From Squalus acanthias (taxonomy: Eukaryota): a DNA stretch of 64,000 nt. Shown piece by piece: positions 7,961-61,422 of the stretch (positions within the stretch are counted from its first letter, which is position 1; every line of letters starts with the position of its first letter). The stretch spans positions 82,462,001 to 82,526,000 of the forward strand of contig CM059432.1 in the NCBI GenBank assembly GCA_030390025.1, read 5' to 3'. A program made the translations under genes and the position numbers. The notes under the pieces are model-generated. The model did no database searches, was not told the DNA's origin, and saw nothing but the letters and a program-made list of their open reading frames with translations.

Positions 7961-8492
7961 TTATAAACAATAAACAATCACTCAGTGTTGGGCAGGATAA
8001 ACTTTAAGGGGGAAAAATTCGGTTGATTAGCGCCTCCCGTTAGCGCCCTAAGAGAGCGCTAACGGGTCGCAAAGCAACTTGCGTCCGGGCGCGGCGATGT
8101 TTGCGCCGCTCGCGAAATTGACCAGAGTTTTTGCAGCGGCGCTAAACACTACCGCCACGATCTCCTGCGCCCGCAGAATGTGACGTCAGTCGAGCGTGCA
8201 ACATCCCGGTAGCACCCCGGATCGGATATTGAGTGGCGCCCCCTGCCTTTCCGCCTGCCGCTAGCAACGACAGGTAGAGGGGAACGTTTTGTAGTCGGGA
8301 AGGGGCTGGGGGAGCGCTATTTAAAAGCGGCCGCTTCCTGCCTTTTTTTGTCGGCGACATTTTTGCACCACGCATTCTGAAAGAGAGAGACTTCTGGAGA
8401 GATTCAACGCTGTGTGAAGGAGTTTTGGGTGCTGAGCAGCACTTTGCAGGTTCATTTTGATTTGACCTTCCTTGCATCGATTTAGAAGAGAC

Positions 8493-9651
8493 TTGGGGGC
8501 TGCACTGATTTGGGGCGTCGTCCTGCACCTGCAGAATCGGAGGCATCAGAGACGCAGAGAGAGAGAGTGGCAAACATGGCCAGAGGGAGGAGGGTCAACA
8601 GACCTCTGCACAGGAGACCTTACCCTCCCAGGGTATTCCAGGAGCATTTCTCCTACATTCATTTGTCTGAGGAGCAGTGTTTGCGCAGGCTGCGCTTCAG
8701 CAAGGAGGTGGTCACTGAGCTCTGCCACCTGCTGCAACCAGATCTGCAGCCTCAACTGAGGACCAGGGCGTCTCTGTCGGTGGCAGTGAAGGTGACAGTG
8801 GCTCTGAATTTTTATGCCAGCGGCTCCTTTCAAGCATCTACTGGGGACATCGCCAATATCTCCCAGTTCGCTGTCCATTGTTGTATCCGGGAGGTGACAA
8901 ATGCCCTGTATAAAAGGAGACGCCAGTACATCTCTTTTCCCATGACCCGGGCCAAACAGCATGAACGCGCATGTGGCTTTGCTAGGGTCGCGGGCTTTCC
9001 CATGGTGCAGGGCGCCATTGACTGCACGCATGTGGCATTGCGGGCACTGCATGAAAATGCAGAGGTATTCCGAAACCGCAAGGGCACCACTCCTTAAATG
9101 TGCAGTTGGTCTGTGACCACAGACGGCTCATACTCACCGTCAATGCCCGCTATCCTGGCAGCAGCCACAATGCTTTCATCCTGCGCCAGACTGGTGTGCC
9201 AGACCTTTTCCAGGCACCGCATGACCCAAGTGGATGGCTCCTCGGGGACAAGGGTTAGCCACTCTGCACCTGGCTGATGACACCGCTCCGTAACCCCAAC
9301 ACCCCTGCCGAGCTGCGGTATAATGAGAGCCATATCGCCACCAGGAACATCATTGAGCAGACGATCGGCGTGCTCAAGCAACGGTTCCGCTGTCTGGACC
9401 ACTCAGGAGGAGCCCTGCAGTACTCTCCTGAGCGAGTCTCCCTCTTCACAGTTGTGTGCTGCATGCTTCACAACCTGGCAATCCTCAGGACCCAGCCAAT
9501 GCCACCAGGGATTGGTGCACCACCTGAGGAGGAGGAGGAGGAGGAGGAGGATGAGGAGGATGATCAGCAGCAGCACCAACGTGGGAGGGAGGCGCACAAT
9601 GTTGAAACTGCAAGGGCCGTCCGTCAACGGCTGATAACAAGCCGCTTCTAG
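8493..9651 (+). pseudogene. Harbinger (HARBI1-like, DDE_Tnp_4) transposase pseudogene
   Basis: Motifs GAIDCTH, LLGDKG*, IIEQTIGVLKQRFRCL, VCCMLHN. Frameshift at ~9085 and TAG at 9256-9258. Confidence 0.9.
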
Positions 9652-28629: not shown

Positions 28630-28870
28630 TGTAAAATAAAAAGGAAAAAGTGCAAATGCTGGAAATCTGAAATAAAAGAGAAAATGCTGAAAATACACTG
28701 CAGGTCAGTCAGCAGCTATAAAGAGATAAGGCAGGTTATAACATTTCACATGTATACCCTTCATCAGAACAATGAAAGGTGCACACCCAAAATGTCATAA
28801 TCTGTCTTTTCTCTTTACAGAGGCTGACTGACCTGCTGTGTATTTCCAGCATTTTCTCTTTTATTTTACA
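28630..28870. mobile_element. Inverted pair of Penelope-like 3' terminal repeats (degenerate fold-back element)
   Basis: Arms AAATAAAAGAGAAAATGCTGAAAATACACTGCAGGTCAGTCAGC / GCTGACTGACCTGCTGTGTATTTCCAGCATTTTCTCTTTTATTT, homologous to 37278-37379; degenerate CTGATGA..GAAA core. Confidence 0.75.
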
Positions 28871-29561
28871 TCTTTCATCTGATTGTTTTAATAATGTCAA
28901 ATTATCCTGTAGCTACAGCTTTTATAAAATGTTCTTCATGTCATAACATAAAGAATGACCTAATCCAATTTTACTGCAGACATCAGGATCATCCTTGGGA
29001 GAGTGGGAATGGCCAAGACTGTGGCCGCGATTATGCCGGCGCTCAGAGGGCGGGTGTGGAGGCGGGTCAGAGGTTAAATTCATTTTGATTGACGGCGGGT
29101 TCCGAACCCGCCATCATCCCGCCTCCACGCAACTTTGCCAAGTGTCGGGTCTGGGAGTCCCGATGGGACCCGCCACCAAGCGACGGGAGAGGCACTTAAG
29201 GCAGTTAACAGCTTGTTAACTGCCTACATAATCCCATTTTAACAGCCTCTTCCCATTTTACAACATTTTCAGCGTGTTCCACATCATTCGCAAAACACAC
29301 CAGCTGATTGTGCTGGGTTCAGCAACTAGGCGAATTCTTGACAGCTGCACCTGCAGCATAAAAGCGGACCTGTAACATGGCTGACTTTCAGATGACAGAA
29401 CTTTGTGTTTTGAGGTGTTGGAACACATTTTGCAGGTCTATTGAGCTTGTAAGTGGTTAAGCTGAGATCCATATGCACTGTGACCTCCTTGGAAAACCGT
29501 CTCCCCACATTGACTGACCACTTATAACATCTATTCCTCAACTGAGATATATACCAGCGGA

Positions 29562-30776
29562 ATGGGAACCATTTATACCCTCTCATTCTGGTCCTCAGAA
29601 TCGGAGGAAGAGCAGCTGCGGCAGCAGCAGAACCAGGCACAACAGCAGCAGCAACAACAGGAGTGGCAACCTCCTCCTCAGCCACCTGATGGTGCACAGG
29701 GCAGAGGGCGTCAGCGCAGGGCTGCACCTCACCACAGGAGATACCCCCAACACAAGGTTTACAAGCAGAGGATGAGCTTCCTCAACATGAGTGAGGAGCA
29801 GTGCCAAAGGAGGCTGAGACTTTCGCGAGAGGTAGTCGCTGACATCTGCGCAATGCTGTACCAACACCTGGAGCCCAGAGGAGTGGGTGGACACTCCTTA
29901 CCAGTGGCTGTCAAAGTCACCACCGCACTCAATTTTTTTGCTTCAGGGTCCTTCCAGGGATCATCAGCAGACATCAGCGGCATCTCCCAGTCGGCCGCAC
30001 ACACTTGCATCACGCAGGTTACCGATGCCCTCTTTGGAAAGGCGCACAATTACATCCACTTCTCCACGGATGAAGCAAGTGTAACCGCGCGTGCGGTTGG
30101 CTTTGCAAATATGGCAGGCTTGTCAAGGGTGCAGGGCGTCATAGACTGCACACATGTGGCTATTAGGGCACCCCATCACAACCCAGCTGTATTTGTCAAC
30201 CGCAAGGGCTTCCACTCCCTTAACGTCCAGCTGGTGTGTAACCACAGGAAGAACATTATGCATGTTTGCAGCAAGTTCCCTGGCAGTTGCCATGACTCGT
30301 TCATCCTGCGGCAGTCTACTGTGCCTCAGCTCTTCAATCCACCAACCCAACTTTCCGGATGGCTACTTGGAGACAAGGGCTATCCCCCAAAGACGTGGCT
30401 AATGACACCGTTGAGGAAGCCATCAAACAAAGCTGAGGAGCGCTACAATGTGAGCCACATTTCCACCAGAGCCATCATCGAGCAAACCATCGGCTTGCTC
30501 AAAATGCGATTCAGATGCCTCGACAAATCAGGTGGAGCCCTACAGTACTCACCAGCCAGGGTCTCCAAAATCATCGTGGTCTGCTGTGCACTGCACAACA
30601 TCGCACAGCAGCGTGGCTTACCGCTGCCTGAGGAACAAGTGGCTCAGTGCACAGGCTCCTCGGAGGAGGAGGAGGAGGAAGACCTTGCGGAGGCGGATGT
30701 GCCAGTTCCACCAGCACGCGAGCAGATTGTTGGTCGTGATGCAAGGGATGCACTAATCCATGCCAGATTCACTTAA
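29562..30776 (+). CDS. Harbinger DDE transposase (HARBI1-like), intact 404 aa
   Basis: ATG-to-TAA open frame with [44 protein letters not shown]-rich N-terminus and acidic tail. Confidence 0.93.
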
Positions 30777-34042: not shown

Positions 34043-34907
34043 ATAGTATATTTGAATTTTTTCGTGTAATATTGTGCCTTCATTTTGAAGACACACTTTT
34101 TAAACTGCGACGTGTAAGCAGGTTCAATCAAAGTTGCTAACTGCATGTTTTCTTGATCAATGCTCTGATTACTATCAATATCAAAAGTAATTACAACAAA
34201 TTACCAAGAGAAGCACTCTGATTAGTAATCTGCAGATCATGCATTGCATCATTTATGCTATTACAAGTAAACAGACAGATACACCTGTAACAGCATAAAT
34301 GATACAATACATAATCCTCCCAAATTAGGGCCTCTATTTATTAGGCGTAAATCAACATTTTAAGTACAAGTCTTAAAGGAGTGATGTGCTGTTTTACCAT
34401 GGTCCTTTAATGTACCCTATCCTTTCTAGCAGTAGCTACCGCCCCCAATTGCTTTCACATGTATTTCAAAATAATTGCACTGGCCTGCTCAAGTCGGTTT
34501 CTTAAAAGAAAATCACTTTGAGTTGCTGTTCAAAATGTTCCTCTTTTCATCTGTTTGCAATTATATTCTGCTGCCTTTTTCTCCATGCATGAGTTAGTTT
34601 TGAGGTCGAGTCCACCATTTTTGCATCCCCACCCCCCTTCCCCGCCCCATACTTTCTTTCATGATTTTTGTTTGCAACTGCCTTTTAAATGACGCATTAC
34701 AAAGTAATGTGAACAGGAATTCCTTTAGGGGGGTTCTGAGCACGTTGCATGATTTGGTCGAGAAAGAGGAGTTCAGGAGGGGCCAGCAAACACAAATATA
34801 ATACGGCCGATTTTCATTTTCAGCATGGGGGTAAAACTGACAATATCAGATTGGCCGCTTGTTAAACATCCCGCACAATTTTCCTTTCTATTGAAGTCAA
34901 CAGAATC

Positions 34908-36098
34908 CAAATCAAAGGTGTTGCTATGGGAACCTGCATGGGCCCTAGCTATGCCTGCCTTTTCATGGGATATGTGGAATATTCTTTGTTCCAGTCCTAC
35001 TCGGGTCCCCTCCCTCACCTCTTTTTCCGGTACATTGATGACTGTATCGGTGCCGTTTCCTGCTCTCGCCCTGAACTAGAACATTTCATTCGCTTTGCTT
35101 CCAATTTCCACTCTTCCCTCACCTTCACATGGTCCATCTCCGACTCTTCCCTTCCCTTCCTCGACTTCTCCGTCTCCATCTCTGGGAATAGACTATCGAA
35201 AAACATTCACTACAAGCCCACTGACTCCCACAACTACCTGGAATACACTTCCTCCCACCCCGCCTCCTGTAAGGACTCTATTCCCTTCTCCCAGTTTCTC
35301 CGTCTCCGCCGCATCTGCTCTGACGATGCCACCTTCCATACCAGTGCTTCCGACATGTCTTCCTTTTTCCTCAACCGAGGATTCCCCTCTACTGTGGTTG
35401 ACACGGCCCTCGACCGTGTCCGTTCTATCTCCCGCACTTCTGCCTTCACCCCTGCCCCTCCCTCCCGGAACCACGATAGAGTTCCCCTTGTCCTCATCTT
35501 TCACCACACCAGCCTCCACATTCAACGGATCATCCTCCGCCATTTCCGCCACCTCCAGCGTGATCCCACCACCAAACACATCTTCGCCTCACCTCCCCTT
35601 TCAGCATTCCGAAGGGACCACTCCCTCCGAGACACCCTGGTCCACTCCTCTATCACCCCCAACACCCCTTCCCCTTCGCCCAGCACCTTCCCGTGCAAGC
35701 GCAGGAGATGCAACACATGCCCTTATACCTCTCCCCTTCCCACTGTCCAGGGCCCCAAACACCCCTTCCAGGTGAAACAGCGATTTACTTGTACTTCTTG
35801 CAATTTAGTATACTGTATTCGCTGCTCACGATGTGGTCTCCTCTACATTGGGGAGACCAAACGCAGATTGGGTGACCACTTTGCGGAACACCTCCGTTCA
35901 GTCCGTAAGGGGGACCCCAAGCTTCCGGTCGCCTGTCACTTTAATTCTCCGCTCCACGCCCACTCAGACCTCACCGTCCTCGGCCTCCTGCATTGTTCCA
36001 CTGAAGCTCAGCGTAAGCTCGAGGAACAGCATCTTTCGATTAGGCACTTTACAGCATTCTGGACCCAACATTGAGTTCAACAATTTCAGATCATAACC
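34908..36098 (+). pseudogene. Penelope-like RT C-terminal half plus GIY-YIG endonuclease
   Basis: QIKGVAMGTCMGPSYA, RYIDD, LPFLD, YKPTD, CKRRRCNTC linker, LVYCIRCSRCGLLYIGETKRRLGDHFAEH. 5'-truncated, frameshift near the C-terminus. Confidence 0.9.
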
Positions 36099-36397
36099 TG
36101 GCCCCTATCATATATATATTTTTTATCCACACTTTTTCTTTGTGCCTTCTGTTCTTCTCTCCCACATGGCAGCTGTCTTTCATTCTGCCAGCGCAATTTA
36201 CACTTCATCTAGAGCCATCCTTTGTTTCTTAACCTGTCCCATTACCATCTCCTTTTGCCTTGAATATCTCTTAATGCCTCTTAACTTCTCCTGCCTTCTA
36301 TCCTATCACAGACCTTCCCTTTTGTTCTTTCATCCCCTCCCCCCTTTCCCAGCCCCTACACTTGCTTAAAAATCTGTTCCATTTCCTGCCTTTTTCC

Positions 36398-36430
36398 AGT
36401 TCTGACGAAAAGTCATCGACCTGAAACGTT
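36398..36430 (+). ncRNA. Minimal hammerhead ribozyme motif (family 1), interrupted; 3' strand of stem I lies at 37278-37281
   Basis: AGTT-CTGACGA-A-AAGTC-ATC-GACCT-GAAA-CG-TT | AACT. Confidence 0.7.
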
Positions 36431-37274
36431 GGGCTGGATTTTGTCAATGGGGACATGATGGAGGCGGGACTCCCACTTTTTGGGTTGTAGTCCCGCCTCC
36501 ATCGACTTGTGGCCAACCCACTCGATTTTCCCTTGATTGACCTTGTTGAGCCCGCCCAGTGGGCTCAGCAGGCCAATTAAGGGCCACCCGGCAACAGGTG
36601 ACGTCACAGATTGACATTTTATCTGTCAAGAGCTTTTGACAGATGAAATATCAGCGTTTGACAGCTCCTTGAAGCTGTCAAACACGGACAATCTGTCCTC
36701 TAAGTTAATTCCTTCCTCTCAGGCTGATTTAGAGATCTCTGCAGAACAAAAAGCAGAGGCTGCAGCTTTTGACAGCTCAACGGCCATTCTGCTTTCTGTG
36801 CCGGTGAGATTTCTGACTCCCAAGACCTGAAGGGCTGACACCTGCAGGAGGAAGTTAAGGTAAGTAAAACTTTTTTCCACACTTTACACTTACCTTACAC
36901 ACTTACCTCTGCACACATGCACCCATCACTCACCTGCCCACTGGACATCTCGACCCCTCCAACCCCTGCAGACCGACGGTCCACCTCGCTAAATCGGCGT
37001 GGTTCGGACCTGTTGGAAAGCCCACACTTCATGGCTAAAAATAGGGATTAGGCAAAAAATTGCCTGTTAACTACCTGTTAACAGGCAGTTTATTGGCACT
37101 AATCCCCTTCCCGCCTCGGGGAGGCGGGTTCCAGCACAGGTCGGATACCCGCCTCCTGTGAAACTGGCATGGAGGCGGGTTAGGGGCGGGATGGGTTCGG
37201 GACAACCGAATCTGCAATTTTAACCCCCCACACGCCTCCAAACCCGCCTCCAGGGGTCAATGGAAATTCTGCCC
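36431..37274. mobile_element. Harbinger-type MITE (844 bp) inserted in the Penelope terminal repeat
   Basis: TIRs GGGCTGGATTTT / AAATTCTGCCC, perfect GTT TSD; right end shared with 61495-62202. Confidence 0.85.
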
Positions 37275-37599
37275 GTTAACTCTGTTTCTCTCTTCACAGA
37301 TGCTGCCTGACCTGCTGAATATCTCCAGCATTTTCTGTTTGTATTTCAGATTTCCAGCATCCGCAGTATTTTCTTTTTGCAGAAAGGAAAATATGGTGGG
37401 GTGTATAAAGAGCGACCGATCCAAAACTGCCAGCTTTCCACCACCAGCGAAAGTGAAAATGACCCCCAATGATTTCTGAGGAGTTTTGACCACACCTGTC
37501 ACCACCCTGGGACCTGCATTTACTGACCCCCTTCACACGTGCTTTATTACATCCTCCAGTGCTTTACAACCAGTGGATTCACTTTTAAATAAAGTTTAC

Positions 37600-40500
37600 T
37601 GTTGTTATGTAAGCAAACACAGGTCCTACAAGCAACAAATGAGCTAAATGATCAGTTAATCTGCTTTTAGTCGAATAGCTAAGGGAAGAATGTTGGCCAG
37701 TCTGCTAGGAGAATTCCCTGTTCTTCTTTCATTAGCACCATGAGATCTTTTATGGTCACCTGAACAAAAAGACAAGGCCTCAGTTTAACATCTCATTCAA
37801 AAGAAGGCAGCTCTGACAAAGTAAAGACGTAGCACTCCCCCAGTAAAGACGTAGCACTCCCCCAGTAAAGACGTAGCACTCCCCCAGTGAAGACGTAGCA
37901 CTCCTCCAGTAATGACGTAGCACTCCCCCAGTGAAGACGTAGCACTCCCCCAGTGAAGACGTAGCACTCCTCCAGTAATAACGTAGCACTCCCCCAGTAA
38001 TGAAGTAGCACTCCCCCAGTAATGACGTAGCACTCCCCCAGTGAAGACGTAGCACTCCCCCAGTAAAGACGTAGCACTCCCCCAGTGAAGACGTAGCACT
38101 CCCCCAGTGAAGACGTAGCACTCCCCCAGTAATAACGTAGCACTCCCCCAGTAATGAAGTAGCACTCCCCCAGTAATGAAGTAGCACTCCCCCAGTGAAG
38201 ACGTAGCACTCCCCCAGTAATGACGTAGCACTCCCCCAGTGAAGACAGTAGCACTCCCCCAGTAATAACGTAGCACTCCCCAGTAATGAAGTAGCACTCC
38301 CCCAGTAATGAAGTAGCACTCCCCCAGTAATAACGTAGCACTCCCCCAGTAATGAAGTAGCACTCCCCAGTAATGAAGTAGCACTCCCCCAGTAATGAAG
38401 TAGCACTCCCCAGTAATGAAGTAGCACTCCCCAGTAATGAAGTAGCACTCCCCCAGTAATGACGTAGCACTCCCCCAGTAATGAAGTAGCGCTCCCCAGT
38501 AATAACGTAGCACTCCCCAGTAATGAAGTAGCACTCCCCCAGTAATGAAGTAGCACTCCCCCAGTAATGAAGTAGCACTCCTCCAGTAATGACGTAGCAC
38601 TCCCCCAGTAATAACGTAGCACTCCCCCAGTAATGAAGTAGCACTCCCCCAGTAATGAAGTAGCACTCCCCCAGTAATGACGTAGCACTCCCCCAGTAAT
38701 GAAGTAGCACTCCCCCAGTAATGACGTAGCACTCCCCCAGTAATGAAGTAGCACTCCTCCAGTAATGACGTAGCACTCCCCCAGTAATGACGTAGCACTC
38801 CCCCAGTAATGACGTAGCACTCCCCCAGTAATGACGTAGCACTCCCCAGTGAAGACGTAGCACTCCCCCAGTAATGACGTAGCACTCCCCCAGTAATAAT
38901 GTAGCACTCCCCCAGTAATGAAGTAGCACTCCCCCAGTAATAATGTAGCATTCCCCCAGTAATAACGTAGCACTCCCCCAGTAATGACGTAGCACTCCCC
39001 CAGTAATAACGTAGCACTCCCCCAGTGAAGACGTAGCACTCCCCCAGTAAAGTCGTAGCACTCCCCCAGTAATAACGTAGCACTCCCCCAGTAATAATGT
39101 AGCATTCCCCCAGTAATAACGTAGCACTCCCCCAGTAATGAAGTAGCACTCCCCCAGTAATAACGTAGCACTCCCCCAGTAATGACGTAGCACTCCCCCA
39201 GTAATGAAGCAGCACTCCCCCAGTAATAACGTAGCACTCCCCCAGTAATGACGTAGCACTCCCCCAGTAATAACGTAGCACTCCCCCAGTAATAACGTAG
39301 CACTCCCCCAGTAATGACGTAGCACTCCCCCAGTAATAACGTAGCACTCCCCCAGTAATAACGTAGCACTCCCCCAGTAATGCAGTAGCACTCCCCCAGT
39401 AATAACGTAGCACTCCCCCAGTAATGACGTAGCACTCCCCCAGTAATGAAGTAGCACTCCCCCAGTAATGAAGTAGCACTCCCCCAGTAATGACGTAGCA
39501 CTCCCCCAGTAATAACGTAGCACTCCCCCAGTAATGAAGTAGCACTCCCCCAGTAATAACGTAGCACTCCCCAGTAATGAAGTAGCACTCCCCCAGTAAT
39601 GACGTAGCACTCCCCCAGTAATGACGTAGCACTCCCCCAGTAATAACGTAGCACTCCCCCAGTAATGACGTAGCACTCCCCCAGTAATAACGTAGCACTC
39701 CCCCAGTAATGAAGTAGCACTCCCCCAGTAAAGACGTAGCACTCCCCCGTAATGAAGTAGCACTCCCCCAGTAATGACGTAGCACTCCCCCAGTAATGAA
39801 GTAGCACTCCCCCAGTAATAACGTAGCACTCCCCAGTAATGACGTAGCACTCCCCCAGTAATGAAGTAGCACTCCCCCAGTAATAACGTAGCACTCCCCA
39901 GTAATGACGTAGCACTCCCCCAGTAATGACGTAGCACTCCCCCAGTAATAACGTAGCACTCCCCCAGTAATGAAGTAGCACTCCCCCAGTAATGACGTAG
40001 CACTCCCCAGTAATAACGTAGCACTCCCCCAGTAACGAAGTAGCACTCCCCCAGTAATAACGTAGCACTCCCCCGTAATGACGTAGCTCTCCCCCAGTAA
40101 AGTCGTAGCACTCCCCCAGTAATAACGTAGCACTCCCCCAGTAATGACGTAGCACTCCCCCAGTAATAACGTAGCACTCCCCCAGTAATGAAGTAGCACT
40201 CCCCCAGTAATGACGTAGCACTCCCCCAGTAATGAAGTAGCACTCCCCCAGTAATGACGTAGCACTCCCCCAGTAATGAAGTAGCACTCCCCCAGTAAAG
40301 TCGTAGCACTCCCCCGTAATGAAGTGGCACTCCCCCAGTAATGACGTAGCACTCCCCCAGTAATGAAGTAGCACTCCCCCAGTAATAACGTAGCACTCCC
40401 CAGTAATGACGTAGCACTCCCCCAGTAATGAAGTAGCACTCCCCCAGTAATAACGTAGCACTCCCCTAGTAATGACGTAGCACTCCCCCAGTAATGACGT

Positions 40501-40875
40501 AGCACTCCCCCAGTAATGACGTAGCACTCCCCCAGTAATAACGTAGCACTCCCCCAGTAATGAAGTAGCACTCCCCCAGTAATAACGTAGCACTCCCCCG
40601 TAATGACGTAGCTCTCCCCCAGTAAAGTCGTAGCACTCCCCCAGTAATAACGTAGAACTCCCCCAGTAAAGTCGTAGCACTCCCCCAGTAATGACGTAGC
40701 ACTCCCCCAGTAATGACGTAGCACTCCCCCAGTAATGACGTAGCACTCCCCCAGTAATGACGTAGCACTCCCCCAGTAATGCATTGAATTGTCTAGATTG
40801 CGTGCTCCAGTCCAGGACTGGGGCTAGACTTCTGACTCAGAAATCAGAGTGTTCCAAGTGAGTAAAACTAACACT
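37600..40875 (-). mobile_element. Decayed Deu-domain tRNA-SINE hosting the minisatellite
   Basis: 37600-37818 and 40782-40875 are colinear with the reverse complement of the SINE at 50512-50981. Confidence 0.75.
37821..40781. repeat. 22-bp minisatellite, ~135 units
   Basis: Consensus GTAGCACTCCCCCAGTAATGAC; variants end in AATAAC, AATGAA, GAAGAC, AAAGAC, AAAGTC; occasional 21-bp units. Confidence 0.98.
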
Positions 40876-43902: not shown

Positions 43903-45480
43903 GTTTCTATAAAGCTGCCCTCTAATAACAAATACAATAAAGTTATTCATAGGAAAGCAGTTTTGTCCACTGTAGTCTATGTAATCTATACAACAGCATC
44001 ACAGCATTCAACATAATGTACATAGTGTAAAAATTACCATTTAATTCATTCTTTAAAAACATATAATTACAAGCAGACACATTTTAAATTGAAGGAGCAA
44101 GATGTTTTGTTTGCATTATTTCTATATTTTACATGATGGTGTATTCCGCCCTCAATTCTCTATGGGTACTTTTAATATATTTCCTCTTTATTATTTATAG
44201 AATTGCTTTCAAAAAATCCGAAACCAGCTGGTCCAATCTCCCTCCAGATCAGTTGGTCTGACTGACACTTATCACGTCTGTCACTGACCATTGCACTGCC
44301 TGCTGAACAGGATCAGAATGCCAAAGCATGGGAATCCACAGCTGCAGTCTCCCCACATTCAGAACATTGCCCCTGGCAGGATAGCACCACCACCACTCTG
44401 CTTCAAACATAAAAATAGGCTTCATTTTTATTTCTCAGTTATATTTTTTACTCCAATATTGTTAGTAGAAATCCAATATTCATGGTTCCACCACTGTCAA
44501 TTATGGGATTAGATTTTTATGTTAATAAGTGTGTTTGCATTAAGATTCTATTTGACAAAGACTATAAGAGAAAGGACAAATGTACGCACAAATCTAATCT
44601 TCAATCCAAATATGTTGATTTCATATCATTACTCATAGTATGACGATGAATGAGTAAAGGATGTATATAAGCATTCAGAAACTGAATCTACTAACAACTC
44701 CAAAAATGGTGAACATCTCCTAAATACTCAATGTACCTTTTAAAAAACAAGTACACTAAGTCACTGGATATTTTGGAAGATCCCCAAGAGATGAATTTGC
44801 CAAAGTAGAAAAGAATCTAATAATTCACCTCCTATCACAAGTGTGTGAGATTTGTCATAATTAAACATTTTACTACCTCAGATTCAGTCCTGAGCCAATA
44901 AGCTTGAACTGTTAAATTATCTGTCTATAAGTGCACATAAATAGGGTGCAGAATCTAACAAAAGAGTAAATCCTACAATGTAGTGTTTTTAATTGCAATC
45001 AATAGCAAAATTAACTTTCCAGGAAAGGATTAATGTGCTCAGGAGTTCAAAATAAATTAACATTGTGGCTTCCGCTGACAAGTATCTGCCACTAATTCAG
45101 ACAAATCCCCGTAACAAGGTCCCCATAACGGCTGAAGAGCTTGCAAAAGGAACATTTTGGAGAAGCCTATTTTCTCCCCTACTCAGGAGTGATATTACTG
45201 ATTCCAACAAACGCCATCAGCTGCAGTTACTTTATAAATATAATCAAAGCGAACCAACAGCATTTTTAACAAAAAACATGGCACCTTTATTAATGTAAAT
45301 TTTAACAAAAAAGATCAGAAGATTGAATATTTGTAGATGTAGTGCTCCTCGATTTTGTTTGGCATTGTTATCTTACACAGGCATTGTTATCTTGATGCGG
45401 AGATGCCGGTGTTGGACTGGGGTGGACAAAATTGAGAGGTCGCACAACACCAGGTTATAGTCCAACAGTTTTATTTTAAA

Positions 45481-45518
45481 TCACAAGCTTTCGGAGTTAC
45501 AACTCCTTCGTCGGGTGA
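45481..45518 (-). ncRNA. Minimal hammerhead ribozyme motif (left arm; core variant CCGACGA)
   Basis: TCAC-CCGACGA-A-GGAGT-TGTA-ACTCC-GAAA-GC-TT-GTGA. Confidence 0.65.
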
Positions 45519-46002
45519 AGTGAGGAGATACAGAATCGTCAAAGCATATATAGATAGAGAACAATGCATGTGTAACTTACAATTGCAGACAACTAAATTC
45601 AATCATCCTGACTGTTTATCTGCCGAGGTGTGATAAAGTTAATCAGGTCAGCCAGGAAGGTACCACATCAAAGACATAGCAAGATACAACTGAGACAATG
45701 AGGTGGAGTCGCATGGGGTCTAACGTGTCAAAAGCTGCCGTCTGTATAAAAATTTTAAAGTTAATCGTTTTACATACAGACGGCAGCTTTTGACACGTTA
45801 GACCCCATGCGACTCCACCTCATTGTCTCAGTTGTATCTTGCTATGTCTTTGATGTGGTACCTTCCTGGCTGACCTGATTAACTTTATCACACCTCGGCA
45901 GATAAACAGTCAGGATGATTGAATTTAGTTGTCTGCAATTGTAAGTTACACATGCATTGTTCTCTATCTATATATGCTTTGACGATTCTGTATCTCCTCA
46001 CT

Positions 46003-46040
46003 TCACCCGACGAAGGAGTTGTAACTCCGAAAGCTTGTGA
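46003..46040 (+). ncRNA. Minimal hammerhead ribozyme motif (right arm; core variant CCGACGA)
   Basis: Same motif as the left arm, on the opposite strand. Confidence 0.65.
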
Positions 46041-46217
46041 TTTAAAATAAAACTGTTGGACTATAACCTGGTGTTGTGCGACCTCTCAATTGTTATCTTG
46101 CACAGGCAATGTATATAGTAAGACTCCGAGAGGCAACGTGCTTTGATGCTCCTTTAGCCAGATCTATCTTTAACACATTTCCCCTTTATGCACAATATTG
46201 ATCCACTCACTTATAAC

Positions 46218-52659: not shown

Positions 52660-53340
52660 TAAAGAAAATGAGAAGTCGCACAACACCAGGTTATAGTCCA
52701 ACAGATTTATTTAATTTTACAAGCTTTCGGAGCTGTCGCTCCTTCCTCAGGTAAGTTAGCAGTGAGAGAATCTCCCAGAATTCACAATTTAAACACAGAC
52801 AAAATCTATTCAAATCTTTCCCTACATCAAAGACACAGTAAGAGCACAGCCAAGACAATGAGATGTGTCCCAGGGGGTCCAACGTGTCAAACCACCTGCT
52901 GGCTGCATATCCTGTCAATTTGTGTTGGTTCTTGTGTTAGTCTTTTTAAAAAAAACACCTGGGAAGACCGGCCATGATGTCAAGTCACGTTCTGTATCGT
53001 GACATGAACCCGATATCGCGATTGAGGCCATCCTCATGAGTGCGGAACTTGGCTATCAGTTTCTGCTCTATGATTTTGCGCTGTCGTGTATCCCGAAGGC
53101 CGCCTTGGAGAACGCTTACCCGCAGATCCGAGGCTGAATGCCCCTGGCTGCTGAAGTGTTCCCCGACTGGGAGGGAACCCTCCTGCCTGGCGATTGTTGC
53201 GCGGTGTCCGTTCATACGTTGTCTCAGTGTCTGCATGGTCTCGCCGATGTACCATGCTCTGGAGCATCCTTTACTGCAACGTATCAGGTAGACAACGTTG
53301 GCCGAGTCACATGAGTATGTACCGTGTACCTGGTGGGTAG
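52660..53340 (-). mobile_element. Penelope-like 3' fragment (family 2): GIY-YIG domain plus terminal repeat
   Basis: YSCDSANVVYLIRCSKGCSRAWYIGETMQTLRQRMNGHR...EQKLIAKFRTHEDGLNRD, followed by a UTR with the hammerhead motif and AATAAA. Confidence 0.9.
52717..52754 (-). ncRNA. Minimal hammerhead ribozyme motif with intact core
   Basis: TTAC-CTGAGGA-A-GGAGC-GACA-GCTCC-GAAA-GC-TT-GTAA. Confidence 0.78.
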
Positions 53341-54009
53341 AAAGATTGTGGGGGCATGCAGATTGAAATCAAAACCAAATCTATGTATTAACATTAGTGG
53401 GCCATCAGGCAGTATAGCTTGTGCATAGTCTTCGCCTTTTCCTATCATTTAAAAGGAATTTTACAACCATCATATGATGAAGCAGGAAGAGCTCTGTTAA
53501 CGTGCATCTTCAAAGCTAGAGAACCTGACGGCACCATTCACCAGACTGGCACTGGCATGGATCAGGAAACACTAAGCTTTGCCTTCTAGCTGATGCATGC
53601 ATCATCATGACAGGAAAACCTAACTGATTCATCCAATTAAAAGTACAACATTTTCTTCTCCCTATTTAAGTTTGTGTCACCACTCCTGAAAAAATCCTAA
53701 GAGATAAGTGGCGTACACCGCACACAGGCAACGTAGGGAGCCATATACTGCTGGGTAGCTGGTGGTCACCAATTTTCTATTTGTGAATGTCTCAATGGCA
53801 GAAGAACTGTGTATCTGCCATCAGCAGTAGTCCTTTAAAGTGAAATTCTTTTATGTAGGTTTCTTTTTTTTCTCTGACTTTCAGAAAACTATAAGTCATT
53901 CCTCATTATAAAAATTCTCTGGAAACCACACAAAAGCAGGGCTACAGCAGCAGCTGTTTTATGACAACGGGTTGGGAACGCCAGTTCAACAACAATTAAT
54001 TAGAGAAAT

Positions 54010-54556
54010 ATAAACAGAAAATGCTGGAAATACTCAGCAGGTCAGACAGTATCTGTGGAAAGAAACAGAGTTAATGTTTCAGGTCGATGACCTTTAGTCA
54101 GAACTGGAAAAAGTTAGAGATATAATAGATTTTAAGCAAGTGCAGGGCAAGGAAAGAGGGGAGGGGAGGAAAGAACAAAAGGGAAGGTCTGTGATAGGGT
54201 GGAAGGCAGGAGAGACTAAAAGACAAAAGGGATGATGGTGTAAGGCAAAAGGGGATGGTAATCGACAAATAGAGGAGCTGTAAATGACAACAGCAGAACA
54301 TTACCAGAACTTGCTGTCCAAAGAAATGGGAGCAGTGGTTATGGTCTGAAATTGTTGAACTCAATGTTGAGTCCAGAAGGTTGCAAAGTGCTTAATCGAA
54401 AGATGAGGTGCTGTTCCTTGAGCTTACGTTGAGCTTCATTGCAACAGTGTAGGAGGCCGAGGACAGAGAGGTCAGAGTGGAATGGAGAACTAAAATGGCA
54501 AGCGACCGGAAGCTCAGGGTCACGCTTGCAGACTGAACGGAGGTGTTCACAAAGCA
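54010..54556 (-). mobile_element. Penelope-like 3' fragment (family 1) with mutated hammerhead at 54069-54105
   Basis: EHLRSVCKRDPELPVACHF..EQHLIFRLSTLQPSGLNIEF; AGTT-CTGACTA-A-AGGTC-ATC-GACCT-GAAA-CA-TT-AACT. Confidence 0.88.
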
Positions 54557-58620: not shown

Positions 58621-61422
58621 ATGGCAAGGCTAGATGGCATTTATTTCAATGCAAGGAGTCTTGCGAGTAAGGCAGATGAATTGAAGGTGTTGATGAATAC
58701 ATGGGAGTATGATATTGTTGCTATCACAGAGACATGGTTGAGGGAGGGGCAGGACTGGCAGCTCAATATTCCGGGGTATAGAATCTTCAGGCGAGACAGA
58801 GGAGGGTGTAAAGGAGGAGGGGGTGTCGCAATATTAATCAAGGAGTCAATTACTGCTGTAAGGAGGGATGATATCTTAGCAGGTTCCTCTAATGAGGCCA
58901 TATAGGTCGAACTTAAAAACAAAAAGAGGGCAAGCACTTTGCTGGGAGTGTACTATAGGCCCCCAAACAGTCAGGGGGAGATAGAGGAACAGATATGTAG
59001 GCAAATCTCAGAGAAGTGTAGAAATAATAGGGTAGTAATAGTTGGGGATTTCAACTTCCCCAATATTAACTGGGATAGTCAGAGTGTGAAAGGCTTAGAG
59101 GGTACGGAATTCTTAATGTGCATCCAGGAGAGCTTTTTGAGCCAGCATGTAGAAAGTCCTACAAGAGAGGGGGCGGTACTGGACCTAATTCTAGGGAATG
59201 TAGCCGGGCAAGTGGTAGAAGTGTCAGTAGGAGAGCATTTTGGTGACAGTGACCATAATTCGGTGAGATTTAAGGTAGTCATGGTAAAGGATAAAGATGG
59301 ACTGGAAATAAAGGTTCTAAATTGGGGGAAGGCCGATTTTAATATGCTAAGGCAGGATCTGGCCAAAGTGGACTGGGATCAGCTACTTGTAGGAAAATCC
59401 ACATCAGAGCAGTGGGAGTCTTTCAGAAAGGAAATAGAGAGAGTACAACGCCAACATGTTCCCGTAAAGGTCAAGGGTGGGACCAACAAGCCCAGGGAAT
59501 CCTGGATGTCAAGGGATATACAAGAATGGATTAGGAAAAAAAGGGAGGCTTTTGGCAGATACAAAGGACTAAAAACAGTGGAAGCCCGAGAGGAGTATAG
59601 AAAGTACAGGGGGGTACTTAAAAAAGAAATTAGGAGAGCGAAAAGGGGGCATGAAAAAACACTGGCGGGCAAAATAAAGGAAAATCCCAAGGTGTTTTAT
59701 AAGTATATTAAGGGCAAGAGGATAACCAGGGAAAGAGTAGGGCCCATTAGGGACCAAAGTGGCAATCTGTGTGTAGAGCCAGAAGATGTAGGTGAGGTTT
59801 TAAATGAATATTTTGCATCTGTGTTCACTATGGAGAAGGACGATATAGGCATAGAAATCAGGCAGGGGGATTGTGATATACTTGAACAAATTAGTATTGA
59901 GAGGGAGGAGGTACTAGCGGTTTTAGCGGGCTTAAAAGTGGATAAATCCCCAGGCCCAGACGAGATGTATTCCAGGCTGCTGTGTGAGGCAAGGGAGGAG
60001 ATTGCAGGGGCTCTGACACAAATTTTCAGAACCTCTCTGGCCACAGGGGAGGTGCCAGAGGACTGGAGAACAGCTAACGTAGTACCATTATTCAAGAAGG
60101 GTAGTAGGGATAAACCAGGGAATTGCAGGCCAGTGAGCCTAACATCAGTGGTAGGGAAATTATTGGAAAAAATTCTGAGGGACAGAATTAGTCTCCACTT
60201 GGAGAGGCAAGGATTAATCAAGGATAGTCAGCATGGCTTTGTCAGGGGGAGATCATGTCTAACCAATTTGATTGAATTTTTCGAGGGGGTGACTAGGTGT
60301 GTGGATGAGGGTAGTGCAGTTGATGTAGTCTACATGGACTTCAGTAAAGCTTTTGACAAAGTCCCGCATGGGAGACTGGTCAAGAAGCTAAGAGCCCATG
60401 GGATCCAGGGCAATTTGGCACATTGGCTTAGTGGCAGGAGGCAGAGGGTGATGGTCGAAGGTTGTTTTTGTGACTGGAAGCCTGTGTCCAGTGGTGTACC
60501 GCAGGGATCGGTGCTGGGTCCTTTGCTGTTTGTAGTGTACATTAATGATTTAGATATGAATGTAGGAGGTATGATCAGTAAGTTCGCAGATGACACGAAA
60601 ATTGGTGGAGTGGTAAATAGCGAGGAGGGAAGCCTCAGGCTACAGGACGATATAGACGGGTTGGTCAGATGGGCAGAACAGTGGCAAATGGAATTTAACC
60701 CTGAAAAGTGTGAGGTGATGCACTTTGGGAGGACTAACAAGGCAAGGGAATACACAATGAATGGTAGGACCCTAGGAAGGACAGAGGATCAGAGGGACCT
60801 TGGTGTGCATGTACATAGATCTCTGAAGGCAACAGGACAGGTAGATAAGGTGGTTAAAAAGGCATATGGGATACTTGCCTTCATTAGCCGAGGCACAGAA
60901 TATAAGAGCAGGGAGGTTATGATGGAGCTGTACAAAACGCTAGTTCGGCCACAGCTGGAATACTGTGTGCAGTTCTGGTCGCCACACTATAGGAAGGATG
61001 TGATTGCATTGGAGAGGGTGCAGAGGAGATTCACCAGGATGTTACCTGGGCTGGAGCGCTTCAGCTATGAAGAGAGACTGGACAGGCTGGGGTTGTATTC
61101 CTTAGAGCAGAGAAGGCTGATGGGGGACCTGATTGAGGTGTACAAAATTATGAGGGGCATAGATAGGATAGATAGAAAGGAACTTTTCCCCTTAGTAGAG
61201 GGGTCAATAACCAGGGGGTATAGTTTCAAGGTAAGGGGCAGGAGGTTTAGAGGGGATTTGAGGAAAAACTTTTTCACCCAGAGGGTGGTTGGAATCTGGA
61301 ACTCGCTGCCTGAAAGGGTGGTAGAGGCGGGAACCCTCACAACATTCAAGAAGCATTTAGATGAGCACTTGAAACGCCATAGCATACAAGGCTACGGACC
61401 AAGTGCTGGAAAATGGGATTAG
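58621..61422 (+). pseudogene. CR1 ORF2: APE endonuclease plus reverse transcriptase
   Basis: [42 protein letters not shown]. One in-frame TAG at 58903-58905 and an apparent small in-frame deletion at ~60420. Confidence 0.93.

Follow-up and report, generated by a model that had tools for sequence, protein, structure and literature searches.

Penelope-like elements (PLEs) typically carry an inverted, 5′-truncated copy beside their 5′ end, together with a tail of 30–40 bp at either end, according to PMC8557442, and this layout is also described in PMC8969392. Inverted pseudo-LTRs (pLTRs) with target site duplications (TSDs) of 8–10 bp have been reported as well, and palindromes at their junctions were read as the result of self-priming (PMC3846280). 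In addition, pairs of minimal hammerhead ribozymes (min-HHRs) lying ~100–700 bp apart on opposite strands have been linked to truncated PLEs (PMC4209133). The inverted truncated-copy layout with a one-sided tail is therefore already published for PLEs. In vitro, the protein of PAc, a lizard PLE (Anolis carolinensis, Poseidon-type; Frangieh et al. 2024, PMC11167929), cleaves both strands, extends them and favours ATT, two RT start sites on the RNA delimit the tail, and the hammerhead is dispensable for insertion; inverted products are not shown in the sections of that paper that were covered. The non-LTR retrozymes of animals, which have been reported in a cartilaginous fish, are ORF-less units of ~300 bp with a type I hammerhead and a PLE pLTR origin, arranged as head-to-tail tandem repeats, from which two or more ribozymes on the same strand set circles free (PMC7229834 and bioRxiv 10.64898/2026.07.22.740005).

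We analysed a palindrome within a 64-kb stretch of Squalus acanthias DNA (the window), and we conclude that it is very probably the scar of a truncated PLE insertion. Our best explanation, which we consider probable, is that two 5′-truncated PLE 3′ ends were joined head to head, likely in one event that involved a snap-back, and that the product is likely immobile now. As in the canonical EN+ PLE units (Penelope/Poseidon, Neptune and Nematis; PMC8557442, PMC3846280 and PMC8969392), there is 5′ truncation, a head-to-head copy and a 30–40 bp tail at one end; the target is duplicated over a short length, and the pLTR contains a hammerhead. The locus differs from these units in that both copies are cut before the ORF, which leaves only UTR and a near-perfect palindrome, in that the tail lies on the shorter copy, and in that there is an extra 19-bp target duplication. 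It resembles the PAc system in the ATT at the target and, under the mechanism that we propose below, in a stem-loop tail set by two start sites and in the cutting and extension of both strands. The link to PLEs made in the original prediction, including the inverted pseudo-LTR arrangement with its one-sided tail and the minimal hammerheads, was thus borne out.

The inverted arms occupy positions 45430–45747 and 45774–46091, and 318 of 318 positions pair around a 26-bp spacer (45748–45773). The left arm is a 5′-truncated PLE 3′ UTR, or pLTR, with its sense on the minus strand, and the right arm is an identical 318-nt copy with its sense on the plus strand and without a tail. The tail, an extension of 35–37 nt (45395–45429, minus strand), belongs to the left copy only and is predicted to form a 9-bp stem with the arm end. 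The inverted 5′-truncated copy lies at the 5′ end, so that the arms stand head to head with their 5′ ends 26 nt apart; the right copy is tail-less and 26 nt longer, the spacer being its extra 5′ length (plus strand), and the left copy is shorter and tailed. At the junction of the two arms, there is microhomology of 1 nt only. A putative AATAAA signal, read from the sequence, is found at 46046–46051 (plus strand), with its mirror at 45470–45475 (minus strand). No ORF was found in the palindrome: stop-free stretches reach at most 65 codons, and those that begin with ATG at most 32. Direct comparison confirmed the identical arms, the spacer, the one-sided tail and the absence of an ORF that had been predicted, and the expected hammerhead and AATAAA near each outer end are both present in each arm, in that arm's sense direction.

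The palindrome is bounded by a 12-nt direct repeat (45383–45394 and 46089–46100, plus strand), which would arise by chance in two 50-nt flanks with a probability of ~4e-4. It had been predicted to be a TSD of ~12 bp; the repeat itself stands, but its reading as a TSD is ambiguous, since the first 3 nt of the right copy overlap the arm end and the tail, to judge from family contigs whose alignments start at 45393, may take in the last 2 nt of the left copy. Next to the left copy lies the first copy of a 19-bp local target duplication (45364–45382, plus strand), which is alike at 18 of 19 positions with 46089–46107.

The arms could be assigned through a sister element outside the insertion (52665–53341, minus strand), a 5′-truncated PLE that consists of an endonuclease C-terminus, a 3′ UTR and a CUGA hammerhead, with no tail. 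The arm is collinear with the sister 3′ UTR (52665–52909) at both ends, with 82% identity in an outer block of 109 nt and 78% in an inner block of 87 nt (E 7e-12), and with little match over a middle part of roughly 70–100 nt. Hence, the proposed match of the outer ~100 bp to the terminal repeat of the GIY-YIG element was correct, but the statement that the inner part shares only short patches with it was not, as the 87-nt block is collinear. The stop codon of the sister precedes the inner arm end by ~75 nt. Residues 527–642 of a 643-aa shark protein with an RT domain match the sister ORF at 92% identity, and 52 of 120 candidate homologues pass an E value of 0.001; the named ones all come from sharks, and full-length relatives have ~880 aa. 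A Pfam search with the sister endonuclease fragment matched 0 families, and we take the fragment to be of the GIY-YIG type from its motif and its homologues. In P0011, a gene model from another shark that represents an endonuclease-bearing PLE, the endonuclease, UTR, hammerhead and tail are read through in this order, and residues 162–229 match the arm end and the tail (E 9e-13). From these comparisons, we infer that the arm is the 3′ UTR of a GIY-YIG PLE, the parent being approached through a sister that is 80% alike.

The palindrome itself has no coding sequence, and the clade of its parent is read from the proteins of its relatives. A CX2-5CxxC linker is found in 27 of the 52 sister-element homologues, P0001 included, and this linker is assigned to Neptune and Nematis in PMC8557442. 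The parent is thus probably a Neptune-type element, judged from sequence motifs, and the linker of the shark proteins points to Neptune/Nematis and not to Poseidon, the clade of PAc, which is not the family of the palindrome. Several annotated shark gene models (P0010, P0011, P0023, P0025 and P0043; XRCC5, septin 5a and others) contain PLE endonuclease pieces, which would reflect either exonisation or an annotation artefact.

A second PLE family has made the same head-to-head shape at 28638–28871 in the window. This fold-back is older, with arms of ~100 bp that are 80% alike, a tail on the left only and a CUGA core at 28767 (minus strand), and it derives from a different PLE family, that of the RT/GIY-YIG element at 34866–37378, whose 3′ end it represents. 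Pieces of this second family lie at 34866–37378 and 54005–54548; the 3′ end of the long copy is apparently split by an insertion (~36420 to 37270), and the ORF at 34866–36071 has a Pfam match to GIY-YIG that is below the cutoff (E 0.0096). The window also holds a tandem array in which a 22-bp unit is repeated more than 100 times (37684–40836) and whose minus strand is open in all of three frames, and an uninterrupted 838-aa frame (58906–61422) that resembles a CR1/L2-type LINE ORF2. The frames at 8486–9651 and 29514–30776 resemble Harbinger-type transposases, and frames near them are Myb/SANT-like.

We then examined whether the insertion is supported by contigs from sequencing runs; this evidence covers 4 of 24 listed runs and 31 of 34,455 pieces listed, and the summed depths are not copy numbers. 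In organism A, the left junction is contained in a contig from sample S1, which may be the assembly's own sample (44700–45410, 0 differences), and in a contig from sample S2 of another study (44733–45412, 1 difference), with the junction crossed by 16–18 nt in the two. In a related species (organism B), a contig joins 45375 to 46101 and thus represents the empty site, which is 725 bp shorter. The insertion is therefore real, being present at its left junction in two samples from two studies and absent from the empty site of the related species. Among the 31 of 34,455 pieces listed, none spans the centre or the junction on the right; over the right flank (46107–46173), contig cover is 0.17 in run X1 and none in run X5, of which 55% was read, a gap that proves nothing. 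The contigs that cross the left junction unbroken suggest that S1 and S2 are without an empty allele.

The 19-bp target sequence occurs once in organism B and twice, plus the 12-bp piece, in organism A; the local duplication (45364–45382 and 46089–46107) is thus absent from the related species. The extent of the TSD is ambiguous: it could be 7–12 bp inside an older 19-bp duplication, or 16–19 bp with a short re-copied piece. We lean slightly towards an older 19-bp duplication that took a TSD of 7–12 bp, because the two 19-mers differ at one position. As for age, 0 differences over 318 positions place the divergence of the arms below 0.94% (95% bound), and divergence between the two species is 3.3% (22/676). 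The insertion would hence be young but common to two samples, and its age could be masked if one arm was converted by the other. The description of the unit as very recent was overstated, given the left junction in two samples from two studies and an arm identity that sets an upper bound on divergence.

The centre of the palindrome could be resolved with contigs from other members of the family. On the plus strand, their alignment starts at 45747 and crosses the spacer before it enters the right arm (86 nt in all, with 7 differences and 1 gap). Their upstream continuation, of which at most 25 nt is common to them, is shared by nine contigs in X5 and five in X6 (agreement 1.0 and 0.97, respectively) and is not the left arm. 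Since family contigs pass through the spacer into common upstream sequence and not into the left arm, the palindrome centre is a truncation point, and the spacer is further family sequence that adjoins the right arm and has the same sense. Its orientation is taken from these contigs, as the sister UTR is too distant to orient it (neither orientation gave a significant match, with 486 and 117 of 1000 shuffles scoring as high). At the other end, 137 contigs in X1 and 121 in X5 end at 45393 with flanks that are mostly unrelated (agreement 0.38), and this tail end is a common terminus of the family. Before the tail (45387–45394), the loose-end consensus of other family copies has the same six final letters in three runs, although the copies agree poorly overall. 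In the sense direction, the last base of the tail would be the first of an ATG, a hint of an ORF start in tandem copies.

Contig joints were also examined for head-to-head junctions. Thirteen of the 15 joints listed (168 in all) link left-arm to right-arm coordinates, at varied points and with offsets of 0–58 nt; the other two were dropped, one being a skip within an arm and the other lying outside the element. Head-to-head junctions thus seem to recur at varied places, with the reservation that the joint sides are short (19–33 nt) and come from contigs of a very abundant repeat, where library chimeras or sister-family hairpins are possible. Several sister-family joints have their midpoint in the loop that closes stem II of the hammerhead (45493–45496 and 46025), as if a cDNA had folded back, although library chimeras could produce these as well.

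We next looked at the hammerhead motifs. A custom descriptor of the minimal hammerhead, written after the motif was seen and allowing CUGA or CCGA, gave three matches in the 64-kb window, two in the arms (core at 45514, minus strand, and at 46007, plus strand) and one in the sister element (52750, minus strand), and 0 matches in each of 10 order-1 Markov controls. The motifs in the arms are minimal type I hammerheads, at 45481–45518 (minus strand) in the left arm and at 46003–46040 (plus strand) in the right arm. The right-arm motif has a 4-bp stem I, a 5-bp stem II with one extra nt before it, and a palindromic AGCU instead of stem III, and its predicted cut is after 46036. The structural features of the min-HHR are all present, i.e., stems I and II, the extra nt after A9, the G10.1-C11.1 pair and the palindromic 15.2–16.2. 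The core, however, reads CCGACGA in both arms (in the right arm, C3 at 46007 and U4C at 46008) and not the consensus CUGANGA, and is thus a core variant. A core variant named for the min-HHRs of metazoan PLEs by Cervera and De la Pena 2014 (PMC4209133) is U3-A8, compared to U4C here. A contig of 123 nt from another sample carries the exact CCGA sequence (45952–46074, 0 differences, depth 220), which fits the alternative, raised in the original prediction, that CCGA is a trait of the family.

In Rfam, there were 0 matches at the gathering threshold, and no hammerhead model matches the palindrome; the nine sub-threshold matches to 45300–46200 were all to hairpin-type miRNA or tmRNA models and reflect the hairpin. 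Between the arm and sister hammerheads, 9/9 stem pairs are kept, two of them changed on both sides, which is suggestive only, since covariation with two sequences is not significant (150/500 shuffles reach the same count). The U4C change probably weakens cleavage, by analogy with a viroid ribozyme in which it is reported to make activity considerably lower in vitro (PMC3088659). Among min-HHR motifs, monomers did not cleave and dimers cleaved little (PMC4209133). Each strand of the palindrome has one sense hammerhead, always in the second arm transcribed, and in the predicted folds of both strands (~-620 kcal/mol) the hammerhead core is fully paired; these models agree with the earlier expectation that a read-through RNA would bury its ribozyme in dsRNA. 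Given the U4C core, the single sense motif per strand and the full pairing of this motif in the predicted fold, cleavage from the palindrome locus appears unlikely. The hammerheads, which are of the dimer type, would then be passengers, buried in the dsRNA of any read-through RNA.

The palindrome is likely a dead by-product of PLE insertion, and we propose a series of snap-back steps for its formation, although our confidence in these steps as written is evenly balanced. The element's endonuclease would have nicked both target strands, and reverse transcription would have been primed at the right nick from the inner start site, giving no tail, and at the left nick from the outer start site, giving the tail. 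The right-hand cDNA would have stopped after ~345 nt, its 3′ end would have paired within the last 26 nt, and extension from there would have copied the arm. The snap-back copy would finally have annealed to the left-primed cDNA, and repair would have closed the site. Of 285 end points, three have 8 or more paired nt at their terminus, and the putative cDNA end (45747) is one of these; its stem, however, is weak (-0.7 kcal/mol), lies 2 nt out of register with the actual junction and was noticed only in hindsight. A plain fold-back of a tail-primed cDNA is excluded, unless the spacer was flipped later, because it would place the spacer antisense on the top strand, where it is in sense. The fold-back of a tail-less cDNA alone was also rejected, as it cannot make the tail. 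Since neither single cDNA fold-back explains both the sense of the spacer and the tail, priming at both nicks followed by snap-back is the simplest fit.

The same PLE scar could have been made by another route, either from independently truncated cDNAs that were joined end to end or by self-priming on antisense RNA (PMC3846280), and recombination between the arms may later have reset their identity and the orientation of the spacer. We consider this unlikely, although the extension of both strands in vitro, the 1-nt microhomology at the junction and a spacer in sense with the tail-less arm, unlike the outcome of a tail-primed fold-back, would all suit it, and an antisense template is argued for in PMC3846280. 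Independent truncations are difficult to reconcile with end points only 26 nt apart and with a putative cDNA end that can pair within the spacer. All 13 counted cross-arm joints, moreover, have offsets of at most 58 nt, with the reservation that short contigs favour short offsets.

The original prediction of a distinct non-autonomous unit mobilised in trans was not supported, as the arm comes from a PLE 3′ UTR and the spacer simply continues the family sequence; that each arm is the 3′ UTR of an autonomous element, the outcome which had been set against such a unit, is largely what we found. A dedicated non-autonomous palindromic element, for which an autonomous PLE would copy in trans either the 700-bp unit itself or a source RNA with CCGA and no ORF, has only a small chance of being correct. 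In its favour, the interior of the arm is highly repeated in organism A, with no depth for it in organism B at 88% likeness, and the exact 123-nt CCGA contig, from a run that is possibly RNA, leaves room for an expressed subfamily source. There are also precedents: in a rotifer, pLTRs alone mobilised a host gene in trans (PMC3846280), and non-autonomous PLEs exist in Chlamydomonas (PMC8557442). However, the family contigs run past the spacer into upstream sequence and not into the other arm, the centre junction has no second copy among the 31 of 34,455 pieces listed, and the junctions that are listed are varied. Moreover, the tail is the last part of the palindrome, but in vitro the lizard PLE requires RNA that extends ~55–60 nt past the RT start (to +172, with the start at 111–118; PMC11167929), and a read-through RNA of the palindrome would be almost wholly dsRNA in the modelled folds. 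If RNA beyond the tail is needed, as in the lizard element, remobilisation of the palindrome would be unlikely.

A species-specific ORF-less PLE subfamily could nevertheless be imagined, with a dampened U4C hammerhead, that is transcribed and copied in trans and whose snap-back hairpins feed small-RNA silencing of the entire family, an idea to which we give very little credence. A scan for the arm-end pattern found 0 loci in metagenome contigs and 0 in viral contigs. In the literature covered, i.e., main texts with few subscription papers, we found no propagating palindromic PLE derivative and no shark PLE hairpin. If the idea were true, a transposon would build its own silencing triggers in the form of perfect 300-bp hairpins.

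An assembly or sequencing fold-back artefact, in which a one-arm insertion was rendered as a palindrome, is hardly tenable, since the perfect arm identity and the lack of a listed contig bridging the centre or the right junction are outweighed by a left junction that is exact in two samples, a related species that joins the two flanks, a palindrome that stops at the pLTR end before the target resumes with a duplication, a spacer of real family sequence, and a decayed pair at 28638–28871 (80% alike) that cannot be a read fold-back. Among other classes of element, DIRS and MITE readings were rejected because of the PLE 3′ UTR that forms the arm and the tail that is present on one side only. A non-LTR retrozyme was also rejected: the arm shares the size, the type I hammerhead, the lack of an ORF and the pLTR origin of these elements, but in contrast to their head-to-tail tandem units, the palindrome is an inverted pair with one sense hammerhead per strand.

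In summary, the palindrome provides, at a single locus, a clean example of the published PLE layout. How the inverted ends and the tail of PLEs form is called unresolved in PMC8557442 and PMC11167929, and this locus offers a footprint of the process, in which the empty site, a tail borne by the shorter arm and the sense of the spacer together favour double priming followed by snap-back. For the annotation of genomes, such scars mimic MITEs and miRNA hairpins.
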